From Escherichia coli (GTDB taxonomy: Bacteria; Pseudomonadota; Gammaproteobacteria; Enterobacterales; Enterobacteriaceae), in the NCBI RefSeq assembly GCF_036507355.1, contig NZ_AP027877.1: a stretch of DNA of 64,000 bases, one strand, 5' to 3'. The notes under the pieces were generated by a model. That model was not told the origin of the DNA. It was given only the letters and a program-made list of their open reading frames with translations, and made no database searches. Both the position numbers and the translations under genes were made by a program. Below, one piece after another: positions 7,570-51,051 of the stretch (within the stretch, counting starts at the first letter, position 1; each line of letters opens with the position of its first letter).

Positions 7570-8580
<1,011 letters not shown>

Positions 8581-11258: not shown

Positions 11259-11365
11259 CATAGGGCTTCAGTACGCCATAAATTAACCGTGAAAAAACGC
11301 AGCCACGTCGTTAATACTAACGCGGCTGCGATTGATTATGCGCTTACATTAAAACGTAACAGGGA

Positions 11366-12217: not shown

Positions 12218-12808
12218 AGTGTATTCCTTATTGTTGCTTAGTTAGGGTAGTCACTATATTTGCGACTGAGCTGGTCGCTATTTTTAACCAGGCTAGAAAA
12301 TTGAGTCAATATATCGAAAGCGGTAGTCGGCGGGTGTAAGTATGTAATGATGATGCTGCACTGGTGTTGAATATTATTCACGCCAAATTTTCCTTATTGA
12401 GCAACGTCGTCGCAAGTGGCCTCAATGATTTTAGACCATTATCAAAGGTACGGGGCGGCGGGGAGAGATTTAGTGCTGTGGAATATTGTGGTGCTGATGA
12501 ATATTTATATCCAGGATTGGCAGAGAAAAAGCTTTTTTCATGCACTATTTTTGCAAATATTTCTATATGGGAGGCGGTTTTGTTGCAGATTAATTCATAA
12601 AGAAATGCATTTGGGTCTTGGTTTGAAGAGTAGCTGGTTGATGTTATTGTGCCAGGAGGTGCAGGATAAGGGGCTGTATCGATATGCTTTGGCAATTGCG
12701 CGTGCCGCAGAGGGAGATGAAATGCCAATAAAAAAGCCTGAGTTCGATGAGGGACGAACTCAGGCTAGTGTTAAGTTTTACAGTAACACGCCGCAGCGAG
12801 TTGGCTGA

Positions 12809-13996
12809 TTAGAACTGGTAGACTAAGCCCACAGCAACGATATCATCGGTAGCGATGCCGTTTTCTTTGTAGAAGTCGTCGTCGTTGTCCAGCAGGTTGA
12901 TTTTGTAATCAACATAAGTGGACATGTTTTTGTTGAAGTAGTAGGTCATACCAATATCAACATATTTAACCAGATCTTTGTTGGTGTAATGATGATTACC
13001 CTGGCTGTCGAAGTTATCACTATTTACACCGCCTAAATCCTTACCTTTAGATTGCAGGTAAGCGATGGACGGGCGCAGACCGAAGTCGAACTGATACTGA
13101 GCAACAACTTCAAAGTTTTGGGTTTTGTTAGCGATGGCATCAGCATCACCGTAACCAGTCATGTTACGGGTTTCAGCATACATAGCTGCTAAGTAAACGT
13201 TATTAGCGTCGTATTTAGCACCAACGGTCCATGCTTCTGCTGTTTCACCGCCAGCAGTTGCATCGAAGCGATCTCCATAACGAGTGTTATGAGTACCTTT
13301 GTGAACCTGATTGTCGGTACGGTCAGAGTTAGAGTAAGCAGCGCCCAGACTTAAACCAAAGTCAAAGTCATAGGAAGTGGACATACCGTAACCGTCGCCG
13401 TTCTCTTTAGCAAGTTTACGTCCATTACCGTTACCTGAACCTTCTTGATCAAATAATCCGCTTTTCTCGTTGTTACCCTGATACTGGAGTGCAAAGTTCA
13501 GACCATCAACTTGACCAAAGAAACCATTGTTACGATAGGTTGCTACGCTGTTAGCACGACCGTTCATGAAGTTGTCAGCGCCAGCATAGGTATCTCCACC
13601 AAATTCTGGCAGCATATCGGTCCATGCTTCTACGTCATATACGACACCGTAGTTACGACCATAGTCGAAAGTACCATTCTGACCAAAGCCGAAACCTGCA
13701 AATGCCAGACGCGTTGCGGTATTACCCTTGTCGCTTTCAGGACCGTTTGCGCCAATGTTAAATTCCCACTGACCATAACCAGTGAACTGGTCAGCGATCT
13801 GGGTTTCACCTTTGAAACCGATACGGGCATATGACATGTCGCCATCACTGCCAGAGTCATCAGAGAAGTAGTGCAGACCCGCTACTTTTCCGTACAAATC
13901 CAGTTTATTGCCATCTTTATTATAGACTTCAGCCGCATTTGCTGCGCCAGCAACTAATAACGCCGGGACCAGCATTGCCAGAACTTTTCTTTTCAT
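12809..13996 (-). CDS. yedS: OmpC/OmpF-family general porin, apparently intact
   Basis: Signal peptide [21 protein letters not shown], ~395 aa, C-terminal ...GLVYQF. Confidence 0.88.
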
Positions 13997-15729: not shown

Positions 15730-17148
15730 ATGCAGGAAAATATATCAGTAACCGATTCATACAGCACCGGGAATGCCGCACAGGCAATGCTGGAGAAACT
15801 GCTGCAAATTTATGATGTTAAAACGCTGGTGGCGCAGCTTAATGGTGTGGGTGAGAATCACTGGAGCGCGGCAATTTTAAAACGTGCGCTGGCGAATGAC
15901 TCGGCATGGCACCGTTTAAGTGAGAAAGAGTTCGCCCATCTGCAAACGTTGTTACCCAAACCACCGGCACATCATCCGCATTATGCGTTTCGCTTTATCG
16001 ATCTATTTGCCGGAATTGGCGGTATCCGTCGCGGTTTTGAATCGATTGGCGGACAGTGCGTGTTTACCAGCGAATGGAACAAACATGCGGTACGCACTTA
16101 TAAAGCCAACCATTATTGCGACCCGGCGACGCATCATTTTAATGAAGATATCCGCGACATCACCCTCAGCCATAAAGAAGGCGTGAGTGATGAGGCGGCG
16201 GCGGAACATATTCGTCAACACATTCCTGAACACGATGTTTTACTGGCCGGTTTCCCTTGTCAGCCATTTTCGCTGGCTGGCGTATCGAAAAAGAACTCGC
16301 TCGGGCGGGCGCACGGTTTTGCCTGCGATACTCAGGGCACGCTGTTCTTTGATGTGGTGCGCATTATCGACGCGCGTCATCCGGCGATGTTTGTGCTCGA
16401 AAACGTCAAAAACCTGAAAAGCCACGACCAGGGTAAAACGTTCCGCATCATCATGCAGACGCTGGACGAACTGGGCTATGACGTGGCTGATGCAGAAGAT
16501 AACGGGCCGGACGATCCGAAAATCATCGATGGTAAACATTTTCTGCCGCAGCACCGTGAACGCATCGTGCTGGTGGGTTTTCGTCGCGATCTTAATCTGA
16601 AAGCCGATTTTACTCTGCGTGATATCAGCGAATGTTTCCCTGCACAGCGAGTGACGCTGGCGCAGCTGCTGGACCCGATGGTCGAGGCGAAATATATCCT
16701 GACGCCGGTGCTGTGGAAGTACCTCTATCGTTATGCGAAAAAACATCAGGCGCGCGGTAACGGCTTCGGTTATGGAATGGTTTATCCGAACAATCCGCAA
16801 AGCGTCACGCGTACGCTGTCTGCGCGTTATTACAAAGATGGCGCGGAAATTTTAATCGATCGCGGCTGGGATATGGCCACGGGTGAGAAAGACTTTGACG
16901 ATCCGCTGAATCAGCAACATCGTCCACGTCGGTTAACGCCTCGGGAATGCGCGCGCTTAATGGGTTTTGAAGCGCCGGGAGAAGCGAAATTCCGCATTCC
17001 GGTTTCGGACACTCAGGCCTATCGCCAGTTCGGTAACTCGGTGGTCGTGCCGGTCTTTGCCGCGGTGGCAAAACTGCTTGAGCCAAAAATCAAACAGGCG
17101 GTGGCGTTGCGTCAGCAAGAGGCACAACATGGCCGACGTTCACGATAA
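15730..17148 (+). CDS. dcm: DNA-cytosine C5 methyltransferase Dcm
   Basis: 472 aa with FAGIGG and PCQ motifs. Confidence 0.95.
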
Positions 17149-17599
17149 GGCCACTCGCAGCAAAAATATGCGCGCGATTGCCACGCGTGATACGGCGATT
17201 GAGAAGCGCCTCGCCAGTCTGTTAACCGGGCAGGGCCTGGCGTTTCGCGTTCAGGACGCCAGTCTGCCCGGACGCCCGGATTTTGTCGTTGATGAATATC
17301 GCTGCGTGATATTTACCCATGGCTGCTTCTGGCATCATCATCACTGCTATCTGTTTAAAGTGCCTGCGACTCGAAGCGAGTTCTGGCTGGAGAAGATAGG
17401 TAAAAATGTTGAGCGCGATCGCCGCGATATCAGTCGCTTGCAGGAACTCGGCTGGCGCGTATTGATTGTCTGGGAGTGCGCGTTACGTGGGCGCGAGAAG
17501 CTGACGGATGAAGCGCTTACCGAGCGTCTGGAAGAGTGGATCTGCGGCGAAGGTGCCAGCGCGCAGATCGACACGCAGGGGATACATTTACTCGCTTGA
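17129..17599 (+). CDS. vsr: Very-short-patch repair endonuclease Vsr
   Basis: 156 aa [16 protein letters not shown]...; start overlaps the dcm 3' end in another frame. Confidence 0.93.
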
Positions 17600-20029: not shown

Positions 20030-22555
<2,526 letters not shown>

Positions 22556-26546: not shown

Positions 26547-26960
26547 CTAACGGCTCAGGCGGCGCATTCGCTCAGACGGAGTAATGATATCGGTGATCCG
26601 CACGCCATATTTATCGGCAACGACCACCACTTCGCCCTGGGCGATTAAATAACCGTTGATCAGAATATCCAGTGGTTCGCCCGCCAGACCGTCCAGCGCC
26701 ACGACGGACCCTTGCGTCAGACGCAACAGCTCTTTGATGGTCATCCGCGTACGGCCCAGCTCGACGGTCAGCTTGACCGGAATATCCATAATCAGGTCGA
26801 TATCCTGCAACGTTCCGCTGACATCACCACCGCCAAATTGCTGGAACACCGCGTCGGCAGCGCTTTTGCTGCTGGTTGATTTTTGTTCGCTCAACGCTTC
26901 AGCCCACAGATCGTCCATTGCGCCGTTGTTGTCATCGGCCGGATTATTCATGTCACTCAT
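26547..26960 (-). CDS. fliN: Flagellar motor switch protein FliN
   Basis: 137 aa. Confidence 0.93.
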   Translation of the reverse strand: MSDMNNPADDNNGAMDDLWAEALSEQKSTSSKSAADAVFQQFGGGDVSGTLQDIDLIMDIPVKLTVELGRTRMTIKELLRLTQGSVVALDGLAGEPLDILINGYLIAQGEVVVVADKYGVRITDIITPSERMRRLSR

Positions 26961-27961
26961 TTGGGCTGTTCCTCGTTCAGAGAATTTAAAATCGGGTTAA
27001 TCAAATGTTCTATCCGTAACGCATACTGACCGTTGAGGGTGCCGTACTGACTGGTCAGTACCGGAACGCCGTCAACATGAGCGATGATGCGATCGGGTTT
27101 TTCTATCGGCAGGACGTCGCCGGGGTTCAGTTTTAAAATCTGCGACAGGCGTAGCGAGATATCGGCAAAGTTGGCGACCAGCTCCAGCTGTGAATGCTGC
27201 ACCTGGCGCACCAGGTTATCGCGCCAGTTCTGATCTTCATTATGCGAGTTTTCCAGCGGCGGGTTAACCAACAATTCCCGTAGCGGCTCGATCATGCTGA
27301 ATGGCAGGCAGATATTAAATTCGCCGGTCAGGTTGCCAATCTCCACATGGAACGGCGTGTTAACCACAATGTCGTTCGGCGAGGTGGTGATATTGGTAAA
27401 TTTCACCTGCATTTCCGAACGCACGTACTCAACTTCCAGCGGATTAATCGCCTTCCATGCGTCGCTATAGCCTTCAAGCGCCAGTTTCAACATGCGGTTG
27501 ATGACGCGCTGTTCGGTATGGGTAAACTCGCGGCCTTCCACTTTGGTCGGGAAGCGTCCATCGCCGCCAAACAGGTTATCCACGGCGATAAACACCAGAC
27601 TCGGCGAGAACACCACCAGCCCTGTGCCGCGCAGCGGTTTCAGATGGATAAGGTTCAGGTTGGTCGGCACCGGCAGGTTGCGGGCAAATTCATGGTACGG
27701 CTGAATGCGGATGGCCCCGACGGTTATATCCGGGCTACGACGCAGCAGGTTGAACAGCCCCATACGAAAATGGCGGGCAAAGCGCTCATTAATGATTTCC
27801 AGCGCCTGCAAACGTTCGCGCACAACCCGTCGTTGGGTATTCGGATCGTACGGACGAATGTCACTTTCGCCGCTAACACTGGCTGTCGGTTCGTCTTTGA
27901 CTTCGCTGTCACCATTCAACAGCGCATCAATTTCAGCTTGAGAAAGAATACTATCGCCCAT
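26957..27961 (-). CDS. fliM: Flagellar motor switch protein FliM
   Basis: 334 aa from MGDSILSQAEIDALL. Confidence 0.93.
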   Translation of the reverse strand: MGDSILSQAEIDALLNGDSEVKDEPTASVSGESDIRPYDPNTQRRVVRERLQALEIINERFARHFRMGLFNLLRRSPDITVGAIRIQPYHEFARNLPVPTNLNLIHLKPLRGTGLVVFSPSLVFIAVDNLFGGDGRFPTKVEGREFTHTEQRVINRMLKLALEGYSDAWKAINPLEVEYVRSEMQVKFTNITTSPNDIVVNTPFHVEIGNLTGEFNICLPFSMIEPLRELLVNPPLENSHNEDQNWRDNLVRQVQHSQLELVANFADISLRLSQILKLNPGDVLPIEKPDRIIAHVDGVPVLTSQYGTLNGQYALRIEHLINPILNSLNEEQPK

Positions 27962-28534: not shown

Positions 28535-29671
28535 TTAGGCGAAAATATCAACGCCGCTGTTGCCTGTTACACGCCCTTGTAAAGAGACGGGAACCGGAAG
28601 CGTATCGTCGTCTTCCCCCGCCAGAGGTTCATGGTTTGCTGTGCGTTGGCTTTGCTGTTGCTGGGAAGCGGCCTGCTGCTGACCACTAAAGCTTTCGCCA
28701 CTGATGTTGCTTTGCCCTAACTGAATGCCACTTTCGGCCAGCTGCGTACGCAGTACCGGCAGCGCAGCTTCCAGGGCGGCGCGTACGTGTTGATGCGGTG
28801 AAACCATCTGGATTTGCGCCTGGTTATCATCCACTTTGAGGGAGATTTGCACTTCACCTAAATCCTGCGGGTGCAGACGCAACTCTGCACTTTGTTGCCC
28901 CTGGCGGGTGAACAGCGAAATATGCTGGCTTAATGATTGTTGCCATTCGTGAGAACCCAGCGGTGCACTCAAAACAGGCGCGGCGACGGTGGGCAGTGGC
29001 TGTGTCTGGTGTGGAGTGATTAGCGGGCTGGCGGCAGCGGTCACCGGTGAAGGTGTGCTGATGACTTCCGCTTTACTCTGGGCTTCTGCTACCAGCGGTG
29101 TTAATGGCTGAGCTGGCGTGCCGGGGGCATCATCAGGCTGTGCTGTTGTGAGTTGCGCAGAAGTCAGTTTTGTGAAGAGCGTTGGTTTCTCTGCCGGTAA
29201 CACGGTTGACGGCACATCAGTCACTTTGGGCGTATTGTCAAAACCCGGCAACATCGCAAAAAGGGCGCTCAGGCTTGCGGTGACGTCTTCATTCAGATCA
29301 TCCGCTTTTTCGTCTTTTGTCGTATTTTTGTCAGCCACCGCAGCCACCGCAGCCAACGCCATCGTCTGAGCGGTGGTTAACGGTGTTGATGTGGATTGTT
29401 CGTCGTTGATGACAGGCGGTGTTTCATCCACAGGTATCAGTAAATCCGCTTGTTGCGCGTCGGAAACAATATCGCTGATCAGCGGCTCGCCTTTTGTCGT
29501 AGGCTTATCTGTTGCCACCAGCAACTGGGGGGCCGCTTTGTCGGTAGTTGTCTCGCCTGCTAATGCTTCGCTCAACAACGCGAGAAAATCTTGTGCAGCA
29601 TCGCTGGCTTTGCCGCCAGGCAATGTGGTGGTGTCAACGTCGGCGGTAATCAAGGGCGCTAAGCGAATCAT
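28535..29671 (-). CDS. fliK: Flagellar hook-length control protein FliK
   Basis: 378 aa, Pro/Thr/Ala-rich linker, C-terminal T3S4 domain; contains a 9-bp tandem repeat at 29332-29358. Confidence 0.92.
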
Positions 29672-30111
29672 TCAGGTTTCCTCATGGCGGCGCGCTGGGC
29701 GAACTCATCCATCTTTTTCTGATCGAGGCGGTTTTCTGCAAGCAGTGCCGCCGTGGATTGCCGTTCCTGCAGTGTCTGCTAGGCCTGCAAACGTTGTTTC
29801 TTTTCTCGCCAGCTGTTCAGGGCAATGTCAACTTTCTGCGTCCACTGATTAAGTTGCTGGCGATGCTGAGTAATGGCTTTTTCCAGCGTCTGGATAAACT
29901 GCTGATAGTTGATCCAGCGGTTGCTGGTCATCCCGGCACTCATATCGCTGTTGAGGTTATTGCGATATTCATTCTGATAATCGATCAGCATTTTGAGCTG
30001 TTCTTCCGCCTGCTGACACCCGCGACGCATTTCACCCAGCAGGCGCGCGGCATCCTCTACCTCTTTTTCTGCCAGATCTTTCAGGGTCGCCAGCGCGCCA
30101 TGTTCTGCCAT
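29668..30111 (-). pseudogene. fliJ: Flagellar export protein FliJ with internal amber codon
   Basis: 110 codons then TAG (plus-strand CTA 29779-29781); same frame continues 36 codons to a TGA overlapping the fliK ATG (ATGA), total 147 codons. Confidence 0.85.
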
Positions 30112-30129: not shown

Positions 30130-31502
30130 TTATGACACTGTCGGGAAAATACGCTCCAGCCCCTGGAGAGACGCTTCCCAGTCCGCGCGTTCAAAAATAC
30201 CTTGTTGTAAATAGCCCTCCAGCTGCGGCCACAGGGCGATGGCTTTATCGAGCATCGGATCGCTGCCTTTGGCATACGCGCCGACGCTAACCAGATCGCG
30301 GTTACGCTGAAAACTCGACAACAGCTGTTTGAAGGTGCGCACTCGCGCGTAATGTTGCTCGCTGATCAACGCCGTCATTGCGCGGCTGATCGACGCTTCA
30401 ATATCGATAGCCGGATAGTGCCCGGCTTCCGCCAGTCGGCGAGACAGCACAATGTGACCGTCGAGGATCGCCCGCGCGGAGTCGGCAATGGGGTCCTGCT
30501 GGTCATCGCCTTCAGTAAGCACGGTATAAAACGCGGTAATCGAGCCGCCGCCGCTAATGCCATTTCCGGCACGCTCGACCAGTGCCGGTAATTTGGCAAA
30601 CACCGACGGTGGATAACCTTTGGTGGCGGGTGGTTCGCCAATCGCCAGCGCAATTTCACGCTGGGCCATCGCGTAGCGGGTGAGGGAGTCCATAATCAGC
30701 AACACATGCTGACCACGATCGCGAAAATCTTCGGCAATGCGCGTGGCATAGGCGGCACCTTGCATTCGCAGGAGCGGAGAAACATCCGCCGGAGCAGCAA
30801 TCACCACTGAGCGTGCACGCCCTTCAGCACCGAGGATATTCTCAATGAAATCTTTTACTTCGCGCCCACGTTCACCAATCAAACCCACGACAATGACATC
30901 GGCGCGGGTGTAACGGGCCATCATCCCCAGCAGCACACTTTTACCGACACCAGAACCAGCAAACAGACCCATACGCTGCCCGCGCCCGACGGTAAGCAGG
31001 GCATTGATTGGGCGCACGCCGGTGTCCAGCACATGTTCAATCGGTGTACGTTGCAATGGGTTAAATGGTGGGGTAATCAGCGCACCGGTTTCCGTCGTAT
31101 CGGGGGAGGGCAGGCCATCGAGCGGTTTACCGCTGCCGTCCAGAACGCGACCTAATAACGCCGGACCGAGCGGCAACTGTTTGCCGCTTTGCAGCCCTTC
31201 TGCCGAAATGTTTTTGGCATAAACACGCGCGCCGGGCAGGACACCTTCGACTTCCTCCAGCGGCATTAAAAACAGCCGTTGACCGTTAAAGCCAACGACT
31301 TCGCTTTCTACTTCGTGCGTTTCGCTGCCCTTCTGGCGCTCAATGACACAGGTTGCGCCGAGCGGCAATTGTAATCCGGTGGCTTCCAACACCAACCCGG
31401 TAGCGCGAGTTAATCGCCCGTAGCGACGTACCGCAGGCAACTGCGCCATTTTGGCTTCAAAGTTATCCAGCGTGGTTAGCCAGCGAGTCAGGCGCGTGGT
31501 CA

Positions 31503-31503
<1 letters not shown>
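30130..31503 (-). CDS. fliI: Flagellum-specific ATPase FliI
   Basis: 457 aa, Walker A GSGVGKS. Confidence 0.95.
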
Positions 31504-35357: not shown

Positions 35358-35730
35358 GTTTTGTAACCTGTTGTTGATTACATCCGATCTCACCGCGTGG
35401 GGCATGGATGGGGCAAACTCACTCATTATCTGGTTTAAAATGGATACCTGATCCTGAACGTTTTCTGCCATCCACGATCCGTATACACGATAAACCCTCT
35501 GATTATCAGAGTGTCTCATTTGACACATCACCACGTCGGATGTTGTTACGACCACAGACGCAACAGTAACCTCTGGATAATTTAATCTTTGTTGATGTTT
35601 TTATTCATATTCCGGGCTATGGATATGAGCGATTTTTGATAGTGGTAATTTTATTGTGTTTTAGAATGCGCCCTGAATCGCCACGGGTTTAACAGACACC
35701 TCAGAGTCATTTAAGATGGCTTAAAGAGAG

Positions 35731-36015
35731 GTGCCCATGAGCGGTAAGCGTTATCCCGAAGAGTTTAAAATTGAAGCAGTCAAACAGGTTGTTGATCGCG
35801 GTTATTCTGTTGCCAGCGTTGCAACACGTCTCGATATCACCACCCACAGCCTTTACGCCTGGATAAAGAAGTACGGTCCGGATTCTTCCGCTAATAAAGA
35901 ACAGTCAGATGCTCAGGCCGAGATCCGCCGTCTCCAGAAAGAGCTGAAGCGGGTTACCGACGAACGGGACATATTAAAAAAAGCCGCGGCGTACTTCGCA
36001 AAGCTGTCCGACTGA
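35731..36015 (+). CDS. IS3-family transposase OrfA
   Basis: 94 aa with HTH; A7 slippery run at 35976-35982 near the 3' end for -1 frameshifting into OrfB. Confidence 0.88.
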   Translation: MPMSGKRYPEEFKIEAVKQVVDRGYSVASVATRLDITTHSLYAWIKKYGPDSSANKEQSDAQAEIRRLQKELKRVTDERDILKKAAAYFAKLSD

Positions 36016-36071
36016 GGTACGCCTTTATCCGTGACAACACCTGTTGCTGGCCTGTTCGCCTGCTCTGTCGG

Positions 36072-36884
36072 GTGCTGGATGTTCATCCCAGTGGTTTTTA
36101 CGCCTGGCTTCAGCAGCCGCATTCACAACGCCATCAGGCAGACCTGAGGCTGACAGGGCAGATTAAACAGTTCTGGCTGGAATCGGGATGCGTCTATGGT
36201 TATCGCAAAATCCATCTGGATCTGCGGGACAGCGGGCAACAGTGCGGAGTGAACAGAGTCTGGCGACTGATGAAACGTGTCGGGATAAAGGCTCAGGTCG
36301 GATACCGGAGCCCGCGGGCACGTAAAGGCGAGGCCAGTATCGTGTCGCCCAACAGGCTCCAGCGACAGTTCAATCCGGATGCTCCGGATAAGCGTTGGGT
36401 AACGGACATAACCTACATCAGGACCCACGAAGGCTGGCTGTATCTTGCCGTGGTTGTTGATCTGTTCTCACGCAAAATTATCGGCTGGTCCATGCAATCC
36501 CGGATGACAAAGGACATTGTCCTGAACGCACTGCTGATGGCTGTATGGCGCCGTAATCCCCAAAAACAGGTGCTGGTTCATTCGGATCAGGGCAGTCAGT
36601 ACACAAGCCATGAGTGGCAGTCGTTCCTGAAATCACACGGCCTGGATGGCAGCATGAGCCGTCGCGGTAACTGCCATGATAATGCGGTTGCAGAAAGCTT
36701 TTTCCAGTTGTTGAAACGCGAACGGATAAAGAAAAAGATCTACGGAACGCGGGAAGAAGCCCGCAGCGATATTTTTGATTACATCGAAATGTTTTATAAC
36801 AGTAAGCGTCGGCATGGTTCCAGCGATCAGATGTCACCGACAGAATATGAAAACCAGTATTATCAACGGCTCGGAAGTGTCTAG
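36072..36884 (+). CDS. IS3-family transposase OrfB (DDE/rve integrase domain)
   Basis: 270-aa ORF; frame stays open upstream of the first ATG, consistent with an OrfAB fusion. Confidence 0.88.
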   Translation: MLDVHPSGFYAWLQQPHSQRHQADLRLTGQIKQFWLESGCVYGYRKIHLDLRDSGQQCGVNRVWRLMKRVGIKAQVGYRSPRARKGEASIVSPNRLQRQFNPDAPDKRWVTDITYIRTHEGWLYLAVVVDLFSRKIIGWSMQSRMTKDIVLNALLMAVWRRNPQKQVLVHSDQGSQYTSHEWQSFLKSHGLDGSMSRRGNCHDNAVAESFFQLLKRERIKKKIYGTREEARSDIFDYIEMFYNSKRRHGSSDQMSPTEYENQYYQRLGSV

Positions 36885-37086
36885 ATTATCCGTGGCGATT
36901 CATACTTTTTATAGAATGCAATCCTATTAAAGAGGCATTTTTAATGCCATGGACTTTGACAGACATTACCTATGGAATATCGCAGAGAAAATATATTGTT
37001 ACGAATCCCGATGATTATGATAAATATTCTTACATGGTTAAAAGGATAGTAATAGATGGTCATAATTAAATAATTTATTTATGTGC

Positions 37087-38152
37087 TGAATTTACAATCC
37101 AAGTGCAACAAAAAAAGAAGTACTCATCAACTAGAATATAATTTTGTTTCCACACAAAAACCACTTCCAAATGATGAGTACTTCCTACCGACATCTTACA
37201 ATAAACGAGCGAGAAAAGATAATGATTTTACTCGCACAGGGCAAAAAACAAGCAGAAATTGCCAAAGCACTGGGACGTAGCTCCAGCACCATTTCTCGCG
37301 AGCTGAAACGACACGCTCTAGAAAGCTACAGTGCAACGAACGCACAAAACAGCTATTTGAAGCATCGTCAAAATAGCAAAGCACAGCGCAAATTAGAGCA
37401 GCCTGAATATTTCAATTTGGTGCAAGAAAAGTTTCTGACAGAAAACTGGTCGCCCGAACAAATCAGCGCACGATTAAAATTGGAAAAATCTGAATTATCC
37501 ATTAGTTATTCAACCATTTATCGTGGTATTTATTCAGGGTTGTTTGATATAGGCGAACGCAAAGCCAGTCGCAAACTGCGCCACAAAGGCAAAACACGGC
37601 ATACAAAAAATCATCATGAAAAACGTGGCAAAATTCAGATATCCAACCATTTGAACGACCGTCCCATTTCGGCGCAAAATCGCAGTCGCTTTGGACATTG
37701 GGAAGCCGATACCGTACTGGGTAAAGCGGGTGGAGCTTGTTTGCTGACGCTGACGGAACGCAAAAGTCGTTTTGAGTTGGTGAAGAAAATTCCTGCCAAA
37801 AAAGCCGAAGCAGTCCAAAAAGCCATGATTGAATTGCTGGATTCACATATATTGCGGTCAATTACGCCAGACCGTGGTAAAGAATTTGCCCAACATCGTT
37901 TGGTAACAGAAGCACTGGGTGTAGAATTTTACTTCCCCGAGCCGCATCAACCGTGGACACGGGGAACGAATGAAAATACAAATGGGTTACTTCGTGAATA
38001 CTTTCCGAAGCACCAAGACATCAATCAGTGGAGCGAAGTTGATATTCAACAGGTGATCAATAAACTGAATTTACGACCACGTAAATGTTTAGGTTGGAAA
38101 ACACCTTATGAAGTTTACTTCAAAAAATCGTTGCACTTGGTTTGACAATTCA
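37087..38152 (+). mobile_element. IS30-family insertion sequence (~1.07 kb, AT-rich; ISApl1-like by size and organisation)
   Basis: Single transposase ORF; imperfect ~23-bp inverted repeats TGAATTTACAATCCAAGTGCAAC / GTTGCACTTGGTTTGACAATTCA; right repeat overlaps the tnp stop. Confidence 0.7.
37222..38145 (+). CDS. IS30-family DDE transposase
   Basis: HTH N-terminus, conserved GHWEADTV and TRGTNENTNGLLR motifs; 307 codons from ATG 37222 (track ORF from TTG 37144). Confidence 0.8.
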   Translation: MILLAQGKKQAEIAKALGRSSSTISRELKRHALESYSATNAQNSYLKHRQNSKAQRKLEQPEYFNLVQEKFLTENWSPEQISARLKLEKSELSISYSTIYRGIYSGLFDIGERKASRKLRHKGKTRHTKNHHEKRGKIQISNHLNDRPISAQNRSRFGHWEADTVLGKAGGACLLTLTERKSRFELVKKIPAKKAEAVQKAMIELLDSHILRSITPDRGKEFAQHRLVTEALGVEFYFPEPHQPWTRGTNENTNGLLREYFPKHQDINQWSEVDIQQVINKLNLRPRKCLGWKTPYEVYFKKSLHLV

Positions 38153-38295
38153 AGGTAATTAATTAGGCGTAATTGTGTCACTGGAATAGAGGTTTCTTGT
38201 GGCGCATGTAGAAGTGGCGTCTATGGACAAGGCGTTTCCTGCTGGTGATAAATAAAGGCGCAGCACGTCGAATGCAAGAATGTGCTGCGTCTGGC

Positions 38296-38775
38296 TCATG
38301 GCAATTCATTATTTTCGCATAGCGTCAATGATAAAAATCGACTGTGTGGATCAAATCGATAATCAGCAAACGGTTCGCAATCAACGAATCCATGTTTCAA
38401 ATAAAGTTGATGGCAGGCCGTAAATCCAGCCTGTGTACCCGTTTCTAAGCTCAGGCGATGAAGGCATCTGTCCTGGGCGACCTGCAAAATGTGGCGTAAA
38501 ATCAGACTGGCGACACCACGACGTAAATAATTTGGCGCGGTACGCATTGATTTTAGCTCGCCATGTTTATCATCCAGCAACTTCAGCGCACCAATTCCTG
38601 CGAGTTGTTCGCCTTCCCATACTGACCAGAATGTCACTGTCGGGTTACGTAATTTTTGCACATCTAAAGCATGACTGCTTTCGGGGGGAGACTGCTGCAG
38701 CATGTCGGAAATATGGTAAGCCACTAATGCTTGCACTGCTGGATGGGTGAGATCATCTGTTTTAATCGTGAACAT
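38296..38775 (-). CDS. yedL: GNAT-family N-acetyltransferase
   Basis: 159 aa. Confidence 0.85.
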   Translation of the reverse strand: MFTIKTDDLTHPAVQALVAYHISDMLQQSPPESSHALDVQKLRNPTVTFWSVWEGEQLAGIGALKLLDDKHGELKSMRTAPNYLRRGVASLILRHILQVAQDRCLHRLSLETGTQAGFTACHQLYLKHGFVDCEPFADYRFDPHSRFLSLTLCENNELP

Positions 38776-38885
38776 GACGATTCCGTATTGGTGTTATTTT
38801 TGCAATATGCCAACAGGTAATGAAATCTTTGTCTAATAGAGATTTCTTATGACGCAGTATTGTTGATCAATAATCTCCAGGCTTA

Positions 38886-39554
38886 TCAAACAGGTTGAAT
38901 TAACTCCGCGCCCTGGTTTTTAACATTACCCACCGCGCGCGATACCGGGTGCCAGGTGAACTGGTTTGCTGGCACACAACCACTGGCCGCGATTTCTGAG
39001 GCTTCTTTACCGCTAATCTCTTGCCGCATCCATTCCCGCGCAGCATCTGGCGACAGTACCAGTGGGCGGCGGTCATGAATATCCACCAGACCTTGATCTG
39101 CCGCCGCAGTGACAATCAAAAATCCTTCGGCTTCGTCACCGCGCTCGAACGGTGTGCTGCCTATCGCGGCCATAAAAACAGGTTGTCCATCAGTACGATA
39201 GATAAAATAAGGCTGCTTTTTGTCGCCTTCTTTTTTCCACTCAAACCAGCCATCGGCAAAACAGATTGCCCGACCATGTTGCCAGAGCGGTTTAAACATG
39301 CGACTCGTTGCGGCAGTTTCTACGCGGGCGTTAATCAGTGGCGGTTTATCCCACCATCCGGGAGCATATCCCCAAAAAACCGGATCCAGATGAAGGTGTT
39401 CATCACGTTCACTGAGCAGAAGGACTTTGGTTCCCGGCGCGACGTTGTATCTGCCAATGGGTTCGGGATCATAGGGAATATCGCGTTCAATATCTTCAGC
39501 GAGAAGCGCAAGGTAATCTTCACGCGTTTGGGATTGGGCAAAGCGTCCACACAT
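38886..39554 (-). CDS. yedK: SOS-response-associated peptidase (SRAP/HMCES-like abasic-site binding protein)
   Basis: 222 aa starting MCGRF (Cys2). Confidence 0.9.
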   Translation of the reverse strand: MCGRFAQSQTREDYLALLAEDIERDIPYDPEPIGRYNVAPGTKVLLLSERDEHLHLDPVFWGYAPGWWDKPPLINARVETAATSRMFKPLWQHGRAICFADGWFEWKKEGDKKQPYFIYRTDGQPVFMAAIGSTPFERGDEAEGFLIVTAAADQGLVDIHDRRPLVLSPDAAREWMRQEISGKEASEIAASGCVPANQFTWHPVSRAVGNVKNQGAELIQPV

Positions 39555-39662
39555 AGAAACCTCCTGAGAGCACACTGAAAAGAATAGGAGAGGGGGCGGG
39601 TAAAATCTATGTGGTACAGAGGCAACGATATTCCCGCTGTGGGCCACAGCGGGAATGAGGGA

Positions 39663-39896
39663 TTACTTCTGAATTAAATAACGAATGGTCGGCCCGTCTT
39701 GCTGAATATCCAGCACCGTATAGCCGTGATTACGCGCATCCAGTGGAATATTATTGATCGACTGCGGACAGTCGCTCACCACTTCCAGGATTTCCCCTTT
39801 TTTTAACTGCGGCATCGCCTCAAGGGTTGCGACTGCCGGATAAGGGCAGGGTTCACCCACCATATCAAGGCGGTAATCAGGAACGATATTTTTCAT
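39663..39896 (-). CDS. yedF: TusA-like sulfur carrier protein
   Basis: 77 aa with CPxP motif. Confidence 0.9.
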   Translation of the reverse strand: MKNIVPDYRLDMVGEPCPYPAVATLEAMPQLKKGEILEVVSDCPQSINNIPLDARNHGYTVLDIQQDGPTIRYLIQK

Positions 39897-41098
39897 GCGA
39901 TCTCCTTAGCAGTCTGCGGTGCCGCACGGCGGAAGAAGCGTTTTTCCCAGCCGATAATCAACATCAGCGCAGCAAACAACAGCAAATATGTCACCAGCAG
40001 GCCACCCATCGGACCAAAGGTTTTCAGCAGGTTGATTTTGTCCCAGTCGGTGGCCAGCGCCGGAGCGAAATCATCCCAGTAATACGCCAGAATCGTTGAG
40101 CCGATCACATTGCCCAGACCGACCCACCAGTAGTGCACCTGGCCTTCTACCGCGCGGTACATCCAGCCGGTTTCGCAGCCGCCAGCCAGCACGATGCCAA
40201 AACCAAACAGTAAACCACCAATTACCGCGTTTGGTCCCGCCCACATGATTTTGGGTTCAACGCCTAACTGTACGTAACTGAAGATCCCGATGGCACTCAC
40301 CGCTATACCAAGAATGATTGCTTTCGCCATATGGGTACGTCCGGTGATCCACATATCGCGGAACGCCGAAGTAAAGCAGATTTGCGCACGTTCAATCAGT
40401 AAACCAAAGCCGACGCCAAACAGCATTGCCAGCCCCAGTTTGGGTTGGTTCATCGCTGTGAGCAGCGCCCAGCCCAGCATGCCGAAAAAGACCAGCATCC
40501 CGAGACGAAAACGACGCCGCGCCTGATCCGGTTTTTGCGTCAGCGGTGAGGCGGCAGAAACTTTCTGCATTTTCACGGGAATACGGAAGATGGGCAGCAG
40601 GGTAAAGCGCGCGCCAAACCATGAACCAATGGCAGTGGCGATGGCAAAGAACCAGGCATGCAGCGAGAACTGAGGAATACCGGTAAAGAACGCCGCCAGG
40701 TTACAGCCCATTGCCAGACGCGCGCCAAAACCGGCGATAATGCCGCCAATGATGGCCTGCATAATGCGGATACGGCTGCGCGGCATTCGCAGTTTGACAT
40801 TGTTGGCCCACAGCGCTGCGGCAAAGCAGCCGCCAAACATACCGAGGATCATCATCCCGTCGATGCGGGTTAATGGCGATCCTTCCAGATGGATAATTTT
40901 AAAGTAACCCCACTCTTCAGCATGGACGCCGAACAGTTGCAGGAGCTGGCCGCCCCAACGGGTAAATTCACCCGTGACAGCCCAAAAGGTGCCAGTAATG
41001 CCAAAATAGTAAGTGGAGAGAATACCCGCCGCGATGACCGCGGGGATGGGCGCCCAGAATTTAATCAACCAGGCGTGTTTGAATTGCTGCCATGACAT
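39893..41098 (-). CDS. yedE: YeeE/YedE-family membrane transporter (selenium/thiosulfate-related)
   Basis: 401 aa polytopic; overlaps yedF start. Confidence 0.9.
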   Translation of the reverse strand: MSWQQFKHAWLIKFWAPIPAVIAAGILSTYYFGITGTFWAVTGEFTRWGGQLLQLFGVHAEEWGYFKIIHLEGSPLTRIDGMMILGMFGGCFAAALWANNVKLRMPRSRIRIMQAIIGGIIAGFGARLAMGCNLAAFFTGIPQFSLHAWFFAIATAIGSWFGARFTLLPIFRIPVKMQKVSAASPLTQKPDQARRRFRLGMLVFFGMLGWALLTAMNQPKLGLAMLFGVGFGLLIERAQICFTSAFRDMWITGRTHMAKAIILGIAVSAIGIFSYVQLGVEPKIMWAGPNAVIGGLLFGFGIVLAGGCETGWMYRAVEGQVHYWWVGLGNVIGSTILAYYWDDFAPALATDWDKINLLKTFGPMGGLLVTYLLLFAALMLIIGWEKRFFRRAAPQTAKEIA

Positions 41099-41284
41099 GA
41101 ATGTAGCCTCTGAACTCAGAAGGTTTGAAACAAGAGTCGCGAATCATACACCATGCAAATTTATTTTCGGGGTAATAATTCACAAAAATAATAGTTAGAT
41201 CAAATTTCTCTCTGAACCTGGAAAGGCTGGCGACATCAGGGCTTTAATGCCACAATCCTCTTTTCTTCTCATGCAGGACGAATG

Positions 41285-41698
41285 ATGAAAAAACTCGCAA
41301 TTGCAGGCGCGCTCATGTTGCTGGCGGGCTGTGCCGAAGTCGAAAACTATAACAATGTCGTGAAAACCCCCGCGCCGGACTGGCTGGCGGGCTACTGGCA
41401 GACCAAAGGGCCGCAACGTGCGCTGGTCAGTCCGGAAGCGATAGGCAGCCTGATTGTCACTAAAGAGGGCGATACTCTTGATTGCCGTCAGTGGCAGCGG
41501 GTGATTGCTGTGCTGGGCAAGTTGACATTGATGTCTGATGATCTCACTAACGTTACCGTAAAACGTGAGCTGTACGAGGTTGAGCGTGACGGTAACACCA
41601 TTGAGTACGATGGTATGACGATGGAGCGTGTGGATCGCCCGACGGCAGAGTGTGCCGCTGCGCTGGATAAAGCGCCGTTACCGACGCCATTGCCGTAA
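41285..41698 (+). CDS. yedD: Lipoprotein YedD
   Basis: 137 aa with lipobox LLAGC. Confidence 0.85.
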   Translation: MKKLAIAGALMLLAGCAEVENYNNVVKTPAPDWLAGYWQTKGPQRALVSPEAIGSLIVTKEGDTLDCRQWQRVIAVLGKLTLMSDDLTNVTVKRELYEVERDGNTIEYDGMTMERVDRPTAECAAALDKAPLPTPLP

Positions 41699-41731
41699 TG
41701 AAATCTCCCCGGCTTGCCGCCGGGGATGAAT

Positions 41732-43219
41732 TTAAATCACCTCTTCGATAACCCACACGCTAACGCTGCCGCCGTTGCAAAAGAAGGTCGCTTCGCCGTT
41801 TTCGTCGGTTACTACACTCTCTTGCCGGTTCCCAAGAAAATCACGCCAGGTTTTATTGCCGTAATTCTCTCCTAAATGAATGGTTTTTTCGCCATCATCT
41901 CCGTTCGACATGACCACCACGCAGCCGGGATATTCGTCGGTGCCACTGCGGCTAAAGGCAATGCAGTTCGGATGGTCGAAAAATAACGTCTGTACACCGT
42001 GGGCGAAACGCTGACGGGCGAGAATTAACTCATCAAGCTGTTCGATTATTGGCATATCTATCGGATAGGTTTGCCCGTCACCACCGACATCTTCGTAATG
42101 CGCACCGTAGAGGTCCGGATAGAACACCGAAGGAACGCCATTTTCCCGCAACAAAATTAGAGCATACGCCAGCGGTTTAAACCACGGTTCGACCGGTGCT
42201 TCGAGGGCTTGCAACGGTTGGGTGTCGTGGTTGGCAACGAGGGTTACGGCGTGAAAAGGATCGGCTTCCACCAGCGTCCCAGTGAAAATCTGCGTCATGT
42301 CGTAGTTGCGTCCCATGCGCGATGCTTCATGGAATTTCATCTGCAGCGGCGCATCAAACAGCATGGTTTTGCCTTCCACCTGATCAATATACGTTTGCAG
42401 CTTATCAACTTCATGCGACCAGTACTCCGCCACAATAAACAGCGGCTTTGGCGCAACTTCCTGTACGTGTTCGATCCACTCTTTATAAAACCAGGCTGGA
42501 ATATGTTTGACCGCATCAAGACGAAAACCGTCGCATTGCGTTTGTTCCATCACCCAGCGCGCCCAGTATTTAATCTCTTCCGTCACGGCATGATTGCGAA
42601 AATCGATATTCTCGCCCATCAGATAATCGAAATTACCGAGTTCATCATCAACCTGATCGTTCCAGCCTTCGCCGGTGTAGTCGTTAACAATTTTAAAAAT
42701 GCCATCTTCATTGGGGTTTTCGATATGGTCGATACCGCTAAAACATTTGAAATCCCAGATAAACTGTGAGTATTGCCCGGCACGAGCGGGGAAGGTGTAA
42801 CGCGTCCAGCCTTCGCATTCAATGATTTCTTCATCAATTTGCGTACGGTCGTCAGCATTAACGCGCTGCACGCGAATAGCTTCTTTTTCATCCGCGCCCA
42901 TTTTGTGGTTGACTACCACGTCCAACAGCACCGCAATGTCATTACGTTTCAGGGCGTCAATGGCGGCCAGCAGTTGTGCTTTATCGCCATATTTAGTAGG
43001 GATGCTGCCTTTCTGATCAAACTCGCCTAAATCAAATAAATCATAGGAGTCGTAGCCGACCGAATACCCGCCCGATGCGCCTTTATAGGCGGGCGGCAAC
43101 CAGACCATATTGATACCAATATCATTAAAACCGTCGGCGCGCTCGGCCAGTTCAGGCCAAAGCTTACCGCCTTCCGGGTAATACCAGTGAAAACATTGTA
43201 ACAGCGTGGGATTACGCAT
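41732..43219 (-). CDS. amyA: Cytoplasmic alpha-amylase
   Basis: 495 aa, GH13 motifs. Confidence 0.93.
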
Positions 43220-43296
43220 TCTTCGACTCCATTCAAGGGGAACATTAGAAGCGTAGCCGTAATCGGATTATTCGCGAGCCATCGACTCATTCAGAT

Positions 43297-43662
43297 TCAA
43301 AAGAGGTTATCCTGCGGAGCCAGCACAAAGCCGCCCTGATCGCCATAGGCACTTAACACCGATTTTTGCACCGATGACTGACCGACCAGTTTCGCCAGTT
43401 CATCCATCCGAATCTGTAATAACTGCTTTACCTTGCTTTCGTTGTCGAGAATCAGGCGCAGCATCGGGCGGAGCTGCTCCTGCATCGTGGTGGACGGGTC
43501 AACCTCTTCAGTCAAATGTGCAATCTCCTGCACCGCATTAACATACGCCATTTCGCTGGCGATGAGTTCGTCCCATTGTTCTTCCGTTGCCAGGCGTAAC
43601 ATGAGCTGGCTTTTTTCGACGAGTTGTTGCCAGGCGAAATATAAATGCGGTGCATGGTTCAT
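43297..43662 (-). CDS. fliT: Flagellar chaperone / anti-FlhDC factor FliT
   Basis: 121 aa. Confidence 0.9.
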
Positions 43663-44072
43663 CAGACTGGGTCCTGAATCAAAGAAGGGGAGAGTAACGA
43701 CTCTTTCCAGGCATCGGCAATATTACGCATTAATGCTTCCACTTCTTCGACTGCGGAGACATCGTTGCGTAAATTGGCTTGCAGCAAGCGCCTGACCATA
43801 TAGCTATAAAGAGCAATCAAGTTTTGGGTTAATTCGTCTTTGCTCTCTTCATCAAGACTCACCCGCAGTCCGTTCTCAATGATGTTGATCGCTTTTGACA
43901 AAGAGACGCCTTTGCCTTGCTGATTGTTGTCCTGCATAAACAGGCGCGCTCTAACCAGTGCGCTCAGCACTCCATCAAATAGCATGGTGACCAGCTGCTG
44001 CTGGCTGGCGCTCATTACGGCGCTTTCGACGCCAATTTGTGCATAGGCCTGGGTGCCTTTTGCCGCGTACAT
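43662..44072 (-). CDS. fliS: Flagellin-specific chaperone FliS
   Basis: 136 aa. Confidence 0.92.
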
Positions 44073-44096
44073 GACCTGTCTCCCGATGAATAATGA

Positions 44097-45503
44097 TTAC
44101 TTGGAATTACTGTTGTTTTCGAACTGCTGCGTTAAGTAGCTGCTGGTGCTGTTTAACGAGGTCATTAAAACGTCCAGTTGGGTAAATTGTTCTTTGTAGC
44201 GCGCGACCTGCGCATCAATGCGATCGCTGGCGGCGTTGTAGTCTTTAGTTAACTTATTCAGGGTCTTACTAACGCCATCGGTAGCGGCTTTAATAATGCC
44301 CGTTGTCGAAAGCCAACTGGTCAGGTTGCTGCCGATGGTGGTTGTGATGCCGGTTTTTTTACCATCGCCAACAATCAATGCACCTACGCCGCTGGCATCT
44401 TTTTTCAGTGCAGCGGTGAGTTTGTCGGCATCCAGTTCCAGTTTGCCATCGCTGGGATCGGTCGTGATACCAATCTGCGCCAACGTTTTATAGCTGGAAG
44501 AACTGACGGTATTACTCAGCATCGATTTCAACTGCGTCTGAATCGTCCGCAGCGTGGAGTCGCCGAGCAGTGCGCCATTGCTAGAACTCTGGCTATCAGC
44601 TCCCGCATCTACGGCGGTGTATTTGGTCAGGCTGCTGAAGGTATCTATTAGCGAGTTATAGGCATTCACCCAGTCTTTAATCGCTGTTTGCGCTTTGGAG
44701 GTGTCCTGTGTGATGGTTAGCGTCTGGTTGCCCGTGGTGACATCGTTCAGGTTCAGGGTGATGTTTTCCAGCGCGTCGCTGATGGTGTTGCTGCTGTTCT
44801 CAATGGCGACGTTGTTGACCGTCAGCTGCGCATTCTGGGCGGCAACCGAGACCTCCATACCGTTGCTGCTGGCACTGGCGTCATAGCCCATAAAACTTTG
44901 TAGCGCATCATCACCGCTGACCGAGAGTGTCATCGCATTATCAAGGCCGGTGTCATTTGATGTGACTGACAGACGATATTCACCGTTACCCACGTTAATG
45001 ATGCTTGCGCTTACGCCTGCTTTTGCGTTGTTGATGGCATCACGGATCCCGCTTAACGATGAGTTAGTCGCGCTGATATCAATGGTAATCGGATCTTTGT
45101 CGCCGCCTTGTTGAATGGTGAGTTTACTGTCGCTGGTGGCGATCGCCGTTTTCGTATCGTCTCTGGTGGTGCGCGTGGTCAGGGTTTGCGCCTGCGCCAG
45201 ATGGGTGACGCTGATGGTGTATTTCCCGGCGATGGCGTTACCCGCGGTGGTGGCACTGAACGCGGTGGTGCTGCTGGTGGTGCTGGTGGCGGAAAAAAGA
45301 TCGGCTTTAGACAATGCAGTATTGGCGGTCTGGAAAGTCGTCAACGCGCTTTTCAGCGTACCGTAGGCGCTAAGTTTAGCGGTAAACGACGATTGCTGAT
45401 TTGAAATGGGGGTTAGCGTCGCTTTTTGCGCGGCGGTGAGGCTATCAAGGATTGAACTTAAATCCAGACCTGACCCGACTCCCAGCGATGAAATACTTGC
45501 CAT
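44097..45503 (-). CDS. fliD: Flagellar filament cap protein FliD
   Basis: 468 aa. Confidence 0.93.
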   Translation of the reverse strand: MASISSLGVGSGLDLSSILDSLTAAQKATLTPISNQQSSFTAKLSAYGTLKSALTTFQTANTALSKADLFSATSTTSSTTAFSATTAGNAIAGKYTISVTHLAQAQTLTTRTTRDDTKTAIATSDSKLTIQQGGDKDPITIDISATNSSLSGIRDAINNAKAGVSASIINVGNGEYRLSVTSNDTGLDNAMTLSVSGDDALQSFMGYDASASSNGMEVSVAAQNAQLTVNNVAIENSSNTISDALENITLNLNDVTTGNQTLTITQDTSKAQTAIKDWVNAYNSLIDTFSSLTKYTAVDAGADSQSSSNGALLGDSTLRTIQTQLKSMLSNTVSSSSYKTLAQIGITTDPSDGKLELDADKLTAALKKDASGVGALIVGDGKKTGITTTIGSNLTSWLSTTGIIKAATDGVSKTLNKLTKDYNAASDRIDAQVARYKEQFTQLDVLMTSLNSTSSYLTQQFENNSNSK

Positions 45504-45546
45504 GCGATTTCCTTTTATCTTTCGACACGTAAAACGAATACCGGGG

Positions 45547-45573
45547 TTATCGGCCTGAATTGCGCAAAGTTTA
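45547..45573 (-). promoter_or_regulatory. Sigma-28 (FliA) promoter of fliDST
   Basis: Plus strand TTATCGGC-N11-AAAGTTTA is the reverse complement of TAAAGTTT-N11-GCCGATAA. Confidence 0.8.
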
Positions 45574-45665
45574 CGTTTAATTGTTTTTTTTAATAGCGGG
45601 AATAAGGGGCAGAGAAAAGAGTATTTCGGCGACTAACAAAAAATGGCTGTTTGTGAAAAAAATTC

Positions 45666-45692
45666 TAAAGGTTGTTTTACGACAGACGATAA
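45666..45692 (+). promoter_or_regulatory. Sigma-28 (FliA) promoter of fliC
   Basis: TAAAGGTT-N11-GACGATAA about 75 nt upstream of the fliC ATG. Confidence 0.8.
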
Positions 45693-45768
45693 CAGGGTTG
45701 ACGGCGATTGAGCCGACGGGTGGAAACCCAATACGTAATCAACGACTTGCAATATAGGATAACGAATC

Positions 45769-47436
45769 ATGGCACAAGTCATTAATACCAACAGCCTCTC
45801 GCTGATCACTCAAAATAATATCAACAAGAACCAGTCTGCGCTGTCGAGTTCTATCGAGCGTCTGTCTTCTGGCTTGCGTATTAACAGCGCGAAGGATGAC
45901 GCCGCAGGTCAGGCGATTGCTAACCGTTTTACTTCTAACATTAAAGGCCTGACTCAGGCTGCACGTAACGCCAACGACGGTATTTCTGTTGCACAGACCA
46001 CTGAAGGCGCGCTGTCTGAAATCAACAACAACTTACAGCGTATCCGTGAACTGACGGTTCAGGCTTCTACCGGGACTAACTCCGATTCGGATCTGGACTC
46101 CATTCAGGACGAAATCAAATCTCGTCTGGACGAAATTGACCGCGTATCCGGTCAAACCCAGTTCAACGGTGTGAACGTACTGGCGAAAGACGGTTCGATG
46201 AAAATTCAGGTTGGTGCGAATGACGGCCAGACTATCACTATTGATCTGAAGAAAATTGACTCTGATACGCTGGGTTTGAGTGGATTTAATGTGAATGGTG
46301 GCGGGGCTGTGGCTAATACTGCAGCGACTAAAGATGATTTGGTCGCTGCATCAGTTTCAGCTGCGGTAGGTAATGAATACACTGTCTCTGCTGGCCTGTC
46401 GAAATCAACTGCTGCTGATGTTATTGCTAGTCTCACAGATGGTGCGACAGTAACTGCGGCTGGTGTAAGCAATGGTTTTGCTGCAGGGGCAACTGGAGAT
46501 GCTTATAAATTCAATCAAGCAAACAACACTTTTACTTACAATACCACCTCCACAGCGGCAGAACTCCAATCTTACCTCACGCCTAAGGCGGGGGATACCG
46601 CAACTTTCTCCGTTAAAATTGGTGGCACCAAGCAGGATGTTGTTCTGGCTAGTGATGGCAAAATCACAGCAAAAGACGGGTCTAAACTTTATATTGACAC
46701 CACAGGGAATTTAACCCAAAACGGTGGTGGTACTTTAGAAGAAGCTACCCTCAATGGCTTAGCTTTCAACCACTCTGGTCCAGCCGCTGCTGTACAATCT
46801 ACTATTACTACTGCGGATGGAACTTCAATAGTTCTAGCAGGTTCTGGCGACTTTGGAACAACAAAAACTGCTGGGGCTATTAATGTCACAGGAGCAGTGA
46901 TCAGTGCTGATGCACTTCTTTCCGCCAGTAAAGCGACTGGGTTTACTTCTGGCACTTATACCGTAGGTACAGATGGAGTTGTTAAATCTGGTGGCAATGA
47001 CGTTTATAACAAAGCTGACGGGACGGGATTAACTACTGACAATACCACAAAATATTATTTACAAGATGACGGGTCTGTAACTAATGGTTCTGGTAAAGCT
47101 GTGTATGCTGATGCAACAGGAAAACTAACTACTGACGCTGAAACTAAAGCCGAAACCACCGCCGATCCCCTGAAAGCTCTGGACGAAGCGATCAGCTCCA
47201 TCGACAAATTCCGTTCTTCCCTCGGTGCGGTGCAAAACCGTCTGGATTCCGCAGTCACCAACCTGAACAACACCACTACCAACCTGTCTGAAGCGCAGTC
47301 CCGTATTCAGGACGCTGACTATGCGACCGAAGTATCCAACATGTCGAAAGCGCAGATTATCCAGCAGGCCGGTAACTCCGTGCTCGCAAAAGCCAACCAG
47401 GTACCGCAGCAGGTTCTGTCTCTGCTGCAGGGTTAA
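45769..47436 (+). CDS. fliC: Flagellin FliC (555 aa; central domain differs from K-12)
   Basis: Conserved N- and C-terminal D0/D1 segments; Thr/Ala/Gly-rich hypervariable middle at ~46270-47180. Confidence 0.93.
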
Positions 47437-47479
47437 TCGTCGTAAACTGATTAACTGAGACTGACGGCAACGCCAAATT

Positions 47480-47580
<101 letters not shown>

Positions 47581-47610
47581 CATGAAGCGCAATTTGTCAG
47601 CAACGTGCTT

Positions 47611-47634
47611 CCCCGCCACCGGCGGGGTTTTTTC
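47611..47634 (+). terminator. Rho-independent terminator ending the fliC transcript
   Basis: CCCCGCC-ACC-GGCGGGG followed by T7. Confidence 0.8.
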
Positions 47635-47755
47635 TGCATGGAATTTACCGGTAACCCCCAAATAACCCCTCATTTCACCCACTAATCGTCCGATTAAAAA
47701 CCCTGCAGAAACGGATAATCATGCCGATAACTCATATAACGCAGGGCTGTTTATC

Positions 47756-48475: not shown

Positions 48476-48520
48476 CGTCAGTAAATGCCGCACTTTAACT
48501 TTGACTACCAGGAGTTCTTA

Positions 48521-49159: not shown

Positions 49160-51051
<1,892 letters not shown>

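Follow-up and report, generated by a model that had tools for sequence, protein, structure and literature searches.

We analysed a 64,000-nt stretch of Escherichia coli DNA (contig NZ_AP027877.1 of assembly GCF_036507355.1; hereafter the window), in which the flagellar genes fliF-G-H-I-J-K-L-M-N-O-P-Q-R lie in their conserved order and fliJ occupies minus-strand positions 29668-30111, between fliI (30130-31503, minus strand) and fliK (28535-29671, minus strand). The minus-strand frame opened by the ATG at 30111 contains 110 sense codons, then a TAG, 36 further sense codons and a TGA that overlaps the fliK start codon as ATGA at 29668-29671. With the amber codon (TAG on the minus strand, plus-strand CTA at 29779-29781) read through, the frame comprises 147 codons plus stop (444 nt). 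The original prediction had placed a TAG after 110 codons at these same positions, followed by 36 codons, a total of 147 and the overlap with fliK, and translation bore out every coordinate. Its assignment of the frame to fliJ is upheld by alignment: the 147-residue readthrough product aligns over residues 1-147 with Salmonella FliJ (PDB 3AJW; E = 5.5e-81), in which the residue aligned to the amber position is Trp. PF02050 is recorded for the 110-aa product. The homology is thus full-length and the operon position is that of fliJ, and the uninterrupted frame of about 147 codons that encodes both coiled-coil helices is lacking. Because of the TAG at codon 111, the gene is classed as a pseudogene or truncated allele and not as a functional fliJ, and NCBI labels the identical allele likewise in other genomes (see below). 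The break is a single-base substitution in a highly conserved gene and not the chance interruption of an open reading frame.

The ancestral state of codon 111 was examined with variant-specific 41-mers, for which every 28-base megablast seed word was forced to include the variant base, in 5,426 complete E. coli genomes. The TGG 41-mer matched 5,118 of these genomes and the TAG 41-mer matched four; the TAG 41-mer had no match in the species-representative genomes. The fliI-fliK block itself found no match in 238 of the 5,426 genomes. All four sister genomes (loci L015, L016/L036, L037 and L038) carry C at 29780, which gives TGG and a 147-aa FliJ, and position 29780 is the sole difference in fliJ between the window and its closest sisters. 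The ancestral base is therefore C and the T of the window is derived, as expected from the TGG to TAG change that had been proposed.

No complete RefSeq E. coli genome exceeds 99.3% identity to the window over the 1-kb fliJ region or 98.8% over fliI-fliK. Close kin were found by other routes. The window gene for the 555-aa flagellin, fliC, is 100% identical to that of E. coli G4/9, a strain of the Symbioflor 2 probiotic. Contig NBJE01000001.1 differs from window positions 38155-57436 by one base in 19.3 kb (99.995% identity), and locus L019, which has the same shiA-IS3-yedL junction as G4/9, is 99.98% identical over the same interval. The exact window FliK (378 aa) is present in 218 blocks of public assemblies. 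The exact FliI, Dcm and porin proteins, used as probes for clone-mates, found only unrelated lineages at 98-99% identity, and window positions 1-10029 are consequently left with no close comparator. On this sequence kinship, the window strain is an E. coli of the Symbioflor G4/9 lineage. A Shigella origin, first suspected from the limited identity of complete RefSeq genomes at fliJ and from the shortness of the sister contigs, was rejected on the near-identity to NBJE01000001.1, an E. coli contig, and on the identical fliC, the short contigs being accounted for by two IS3 copies 35 kb apart.

Outgroup loci served to polarise the differences between the window and its sisters. On the window side, the derived changes are an additional G at 21097, 27243 C>T, 29780 C>T, 31330 G>C and one SNP inside IS3; the window retains the ancestral base at 34917 and 52387, where it is the sisters that have changed. 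Position 34917 lies in the divergent fliE/fliF promoter region, where the four compared sisters (L018, L036, L037 and L038) all have a derived A and the window and other E. coli loci have T. For this fliE/fliF intergenic site, a promoter mutation derived in the window was considered and rejected, as the window base is the ancestral T, and a promoter scan of the intergenic region found nothing.

As a strain-specific probe for clone-mates we used the 407-aa product of a frameshifted dgcQ (yedQ), the diguanylate cyclase gene at 20030-21725 on the plus strand, which is broken by the extra G at 21097 and is intact (564 aa) in all sister genomes. The frameshifted product is on record on five public contigs. 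The independent assembly L045 (GCA_905398585.1) shares with the window the 21097 +G, the derived H240 of FliM (27243 T) and the fliJ TAG (29780 T), which links the dgcQ frameshift to the fliJ amber; the two sequences are set apart by a 9-bp indel in fliK and by HprS A112V and Dcm R217H, a pair of SNPs private to the window. HprS A112V is a missense change at 10234 (hprS codon 112). Dcm R217H (16379, codon 217) lies nine residues upstream of the conserved ENV motif, and since L045 has the TAG without it, R217H arose after the fliJ mutation. The fliK indel reflects a repeat-length polymorphism near 29331, where copies of the 9-bp unit (CAGCCACCG) vary in number; FliK is accordingly 375 aa long in most E. 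coli, as against 378 aa in the window and the sister genomes and 381 aa in L045. Given that L045 carries the TAG together with two linked private mutations, the amber is an inherited allele of a small sub-clone and no error of a single assembly; as sequence confirmation, the independent assembly largely settles the identity of base 29780. The amber is fixed in a small sub-clone of the G4/9 lineage, alongside the dgcQ frameshift and FliM R240H.

We next considered the sequence around the mutated base. The former CCAGG at 29779-29783, now CTAGG, was the only Dcm site (CCWGG) in fliJ, and 29780 is its inner cytosine, the one that Dcm would methylate, changed from C to T as deamination at a Dcm site predicts. 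It is established that 5-methylcytosine at Dcm sites is deaminated to thymine and that Vsr repair counteracts this (PMC2715241). Both genes lie in the window on the plus strand: dcm (15730-17148), the DNA cytosine methyltransferase gene, has an open frame of 472 aa, and vsr (17129-17599, coordinates transferred from the 156-aa Vsr of L045), for the very-short-patch repair endonuclease, has an open frame overlapping the end of dcm. The Dcm encoded here is the enzyme that would methylate 29780. Given this position of 29780 in the sole Dcm site of fliJ, deamination of a 5-methylcytosine that escaped Vsr repair is the most likely cause of the C to T change. Textbook Dcm-hotspot ambers in lacI arise from CAG, on the strand that carries the 5-methylcytosine. 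The fliJ amber has in common with such hotspots the C to T change at the inner C of CCAGG, the resulting amber and the presence of dcm and vsr reading frames in the window; it differs from the lacI ambers in that TGG is the codon affected and the non-coding strand would bear the 5-methylcytosine.

Sixty single-nucleotide changes could create a stop in fliJ, and only one of them, at 29780, falls on a methylated-C position. Methylated-C positions make up 0.47% of the compared sequence, and two of the 15 within-lineage SNPs fall on them (29780 in the window and 52387 in the sisters), both in the direction of deamination (P = 0.002). At 52387, in tcyN, the sister clade has CCAAG and the window and G4/9 have CCAGG, again a transition at a Dcm-methylated C. 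We take a Dcm hotspot to be the probable cause of the change at 29780, mainly on the strength of the within-lineage statistic; a species-wide bias is not strongly demonstrated.

The species-wide comparison was made with truncated FliJ products in a public assembly collection. The exact 110-aa product occurs in 175 blocks. Ten loci with this product were fetched; each is about 2% divergent from the window, together they represent at least five fliJ haplotypes, and one of them has TGA instead of TAG at W111. As controls we took W101, W90 and W66, three Trp codons that lie outside any Dcm site. The block counts were 175 for W111*, 158 for W101*, 80 for W90* and 58 for W66*, against approximately 100,282 for the wild-type protein; nonsense at all four Trp codons together comes to about 0.5% of the wild-type block count. 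The W101, W90 and W66 truncations (loci L020-L031) are spread over several backgrounds, with TAG in some cases and TGA in others. Among complete genomes the counts were four for W111-TAG, one for W90-TAG and zero for W111-TGA, W101-TAG, W101-TGA and W66-TAG, an excess of W111-TAG that rests on small numbers and that long-read assemblies could inflate. In the block counts W111* does not clearly outnumber W101*, and a species-wide hotspot is accordingly claimed only modestly. Of the fliJ nonsense alleles W111-TAG is the most frequent, with a modest excess in the large collection, and nonsense alleles at all four Trp codons on several backgrounds indicate that fliJ has been inactivated repeatedly in nature.

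The four complete genomes that match the TAG 41-mer (TUM9757, E94, E92 and NR301) represent at least three lineages, and NCBI PGAP labels fliJ with 'internal stop' in TUM9757 (NZ_CP128931.1), E94 (NZ_CP119740.1) and NR301 (NZ_AP040196.1). The RefSeq alleles of TUM9757, E94/E92 and NR301 have the same TGG to TAG change at codon 111, the same 444-nt frame and the same ATGA overlap as the window, whereas their fli operons are about 2% divergent from it and their FliH, FliI and FliK accessions differ, which makes them independent events in other clones. Spread of one TAG allele by recombination was also considered, as fliJ is identical in L004, L006 and L010 while the flanks are about 2% different; it was set aside as uninformative, because fliJ is far less polymorphic than its neighbours, the TAG occurs on at least five haplotypes and one locus has TGA. 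Our literature search found no described fliJ W111 amber allele. The identical allele is nevertheless already annotated as a pseudogene elsewhere, and the lesion is of a known kind, with a textbook mutational mechanism. The original prediction had overlooked that the base sits in a Dcm site, that the allele recurs among other E. coli and that the strain has further private changes in genes related to motility.

FliJ is a two-stranded coiled coil bound at the centre of the FliI6 ring, from which residues Q38, L42, Y45, Y49, F72, L76, A79 and H83 project and contact the FlhA linker, activating the export gate (PMC9114704). In EscO, a homologous stalk, both termini enter the ATPase pore (PMC6367419). 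What remains, FliJ(1-110), comprises helix 1, the tip of the hairpin and the residues in contact with the FlhA linker (Q38-H83). Residues 111-147, the C-terminal quarter whose loss had been foreseen, are missing; they make up half of that end of the coiled coil which enters the FliI ATPase ring. This stretch of helix 2 pairs with the N-terminus in the coiled-coil end inside the FliI6 ring; without it, the N-terminal ∼35 residues would be left unpaired and the ring-entering end would be destroyed. Such a protein would not serve as the central stalk by which the export gate is brought into its efficient mode; export of flagellar proteins would drop to the weak level of a fliJ null, and the cells would be non-motile or weakly motile. 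No useful C-terminal fragment of FliJ can be made, since the only in-frame Met after the amber codon is M134.

In Salmonella, fliJ nulls and deletions severely reduce export and motility but are leaky (PMC4230889; PMC3195256; PMC9114704). The original prediction had called FliJ essential and expected its truncation to abolish or cripple export; 'essential' is too strong in view of the published leaky motility of nulls (PMC4230889), and 'cripple' is a fair word. By analogy with the Salmonella nulls, in which the central-stalk function is lost, the same loss is expected here. The window allele differs from the Salmonella deletions in retaining residues 1-110, so the surfaces that bind the FlhA linker and chaperones could survive in it, and its behaviour might not be that of a clean null. 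FliJ(1-110) is probably unstable or inactive, and the motility phenotype is expected to resemble that of a fliJ null, non-motile or weakly motile. We consider it highly probable that this fliJ is an inherited loss-of-function allele, in which deamination at the Dcm site at 29780 produced W111* and a null-like export defect.

A reduction of FliK expression through lost translational coupling, which had also been suggested, is a matter of conjecture. The fliK ATG comes 111 nt downstream of the amber codon. The fliK gene is intact and has its own Shine-Dalgarno sequence, GAGGA, 7-8 nt upstream of its ATG, and in the 152-nt RNA from the TAG across the start no structure sequestering the fliK start was found that was better than in shuffled sequences (z = +1.06). 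Some loss of coupling or mild polarity on fliK is possible; nothing in the sequence requires it.

The reading of the TAG as a real and inactivating mutation was weighed against two explanations that would leave the strain with FliJ. One is that the TAG is a sequencing or assembly artefact, such as a nanopore consensus error at the Dcm motif, and that the real genome has TGG. With default base-calling models, Dcm motifs were the main class of nanopore consensus error (PMC6591954); the perfect IS repeats that the window spans point to a long-read or finished assembly; and one of the linked private changes, at 21097, is a change in the length of a G run. Such an error is nonetheless extremely improbable: the independent L045 carries the TAG with the dgcQ and fliM changes and yet differs elsewhere, the strain-specific DgcQ product recurs on five contigs, of the 89 Dcm sites in 37.8 kb only one departs from the sister sequences, no window-derived change falls in the 19.3 kb at 38155-57436, and the same TAG is found in many Logan assemblies of public runs from other lineages. 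We regard it as highly improbable that the stop is instead read through, by an amber-suppressor tRNA encoded elsewhere or by near-cognate readthrough of UAG-C, to give enough FliJ for normal flagellation. Codons 112-147 are intact and unchanged relative to the sisters, as readthrough would need, but an intact downstream frame is expected anyway for a recent mutation. The base after the amber is C, and a C after a stop codon is generally regarded as a weaker termination context; the plain TGG of the sisters, on the other hand, gives no pointer to a programmed feature. None of the five window tRNAs (Asn, Ser-CGA, Gly, Cys and Leu-UAA) has a CUA anticodon, and the tRNA-Ser gene serU (the supD locus; 4495-4584, plus strand) has the wild-type CGA anticodon and is no amber suppressor. 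Amber-suppressor alleles are also rare outside laboratory strains.

A third explanation concedes the amber and makes it a passenger, motility having been lost already through a lesion outside the window (e.g., in flhDC) or through FliM R240H and fliJ having then decayed under relaxed selection; this is possible but clearly the less expected course of events. All six coding changes on the window branch alter the protein (the dgcQ frameshift, FliM R240H, FliJ W111*, FliI N58K, HprS A112V and Dcm R217H) and none is synonymous, although with so few mutations an all-nonsynonymous set is statistically not unusual (about 0.75^5). Three or four of the derived changes fall in motility-related genes within 14 kb, as compared with none in the 19.3 kb of neighbouring sequence. 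The fliM gene (26957-27961, minus strand, 334 aa) is intact, and its derived R240H (27243 C>T, common to L045) affects an Arg that is conserved in Salmonella. The fliI gene (457 aa) is likewise intact, and its derived N58K (31330 G>C) affects a site that varies between species, with Asp in Salmonella and Asn in the E. coli consensus, which counts against the passenger explanation. The related G4/9 lost its whole fliE-R block by another route and is reported to be non-flagellated (PMC5063008), which counts in favour of it. Against earlier decay within the window, all its other flagellar genes (fliE-I, fliK-R, fliA, fliZ, fliC, fliD, fliS and fliT) are full length and match the sisters.

The route taken by G4/9 appears to involve an insertion element. 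Two IS3-family copies lie in inverted orientation at 1-799 and 35673-36471 (the latter element extending to approximately 36900), 100% identical over 799 nt. They bracket a 35-kb segment that runs from a truncated yeeJ-like adhesin gene to fliE and includes dcm/vsr and the whole fliE-R block. The two copies are the likely reason why short-read assemblies of the lineage break at about 35 kb (sister contigs with the fli block are mostly 20-50 kb). The adhesin gene (796-3189, minus strand) encodes the N-terminal 797 residues of a YeeJ/IatC-like inverse autotransporter and is cut by the left IS3 copy; where the protein is intact, in other E. coli, it has about 2,670 aa. Between IS3 and yedL lies an IS30-family insertion of 1.07 kb (37084-38155; 333-aa transposase), which is absent from L018, L036, L037 and G4/9 and is therefore a recent private transposition.

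In G4/9 (L014, NZ_CP060073.1), positions 9588-13007 were compared with window positions 35673-38775; there shiA directly adjoins IS3, which is followed by yedL; G4/9 has no copy of the fliI-fliK block of the window lineage. This junction and the absence of fliI-fliK indicate an IS-associated loss of about 38 kb, which would have removed dcm and vsr too. The Symbioflor 2 strains are described as non-flagellated, 'all H-' (PMC5063008). G4/9 resembles the window strain in its identical fliC and in the IS3 element, an LRR-gene remnant and yedL, and differs from it in having lost its flagella by a large IS-associated deletion instead of a point mutation. We concluded that motility has probably been lost at least twice in the G4/9 lineage, by different routes.

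A more speculative use of the Dcm site would be as a methylation-dependent, semi-reversible off-switch for flagellar export, made of the single site in fliJ. Repeated deamination of 5-methylcytosine at W111 would yield CTAGG ambers, and Vsr, for which a stimulation of CTAGG-to-CCAGG changes is reported (PMC2715241), could raise the rate at which TGG returns. If this were true, lineages could lose motility and recover it with a higher frequency than ordinary point mutation allows. We consider such a switch very doubtful.

The fliJ W111 amber is real and inherited, and it is an ordinary inactivating mutation, of a type that has turned up time and again in E. coli. Its use is for annotation and phenotype prediction; it brings no new biology and needs no new mechanism. 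The strain is predicted to be non-motile or weakly motile and H- on serotyping, despite an intact flagellin gene and the other intact fli genes of the window. The allele is a clean natural example of a 5-methylcytosine transition at a Dcm site inactivating a gene, and it adds to the evidence that flagella have been lost repeatedly in E. coli, by point mutation, by IS-associated deletion as in G4/9, and by nonsense at four fliJ Trp codons.
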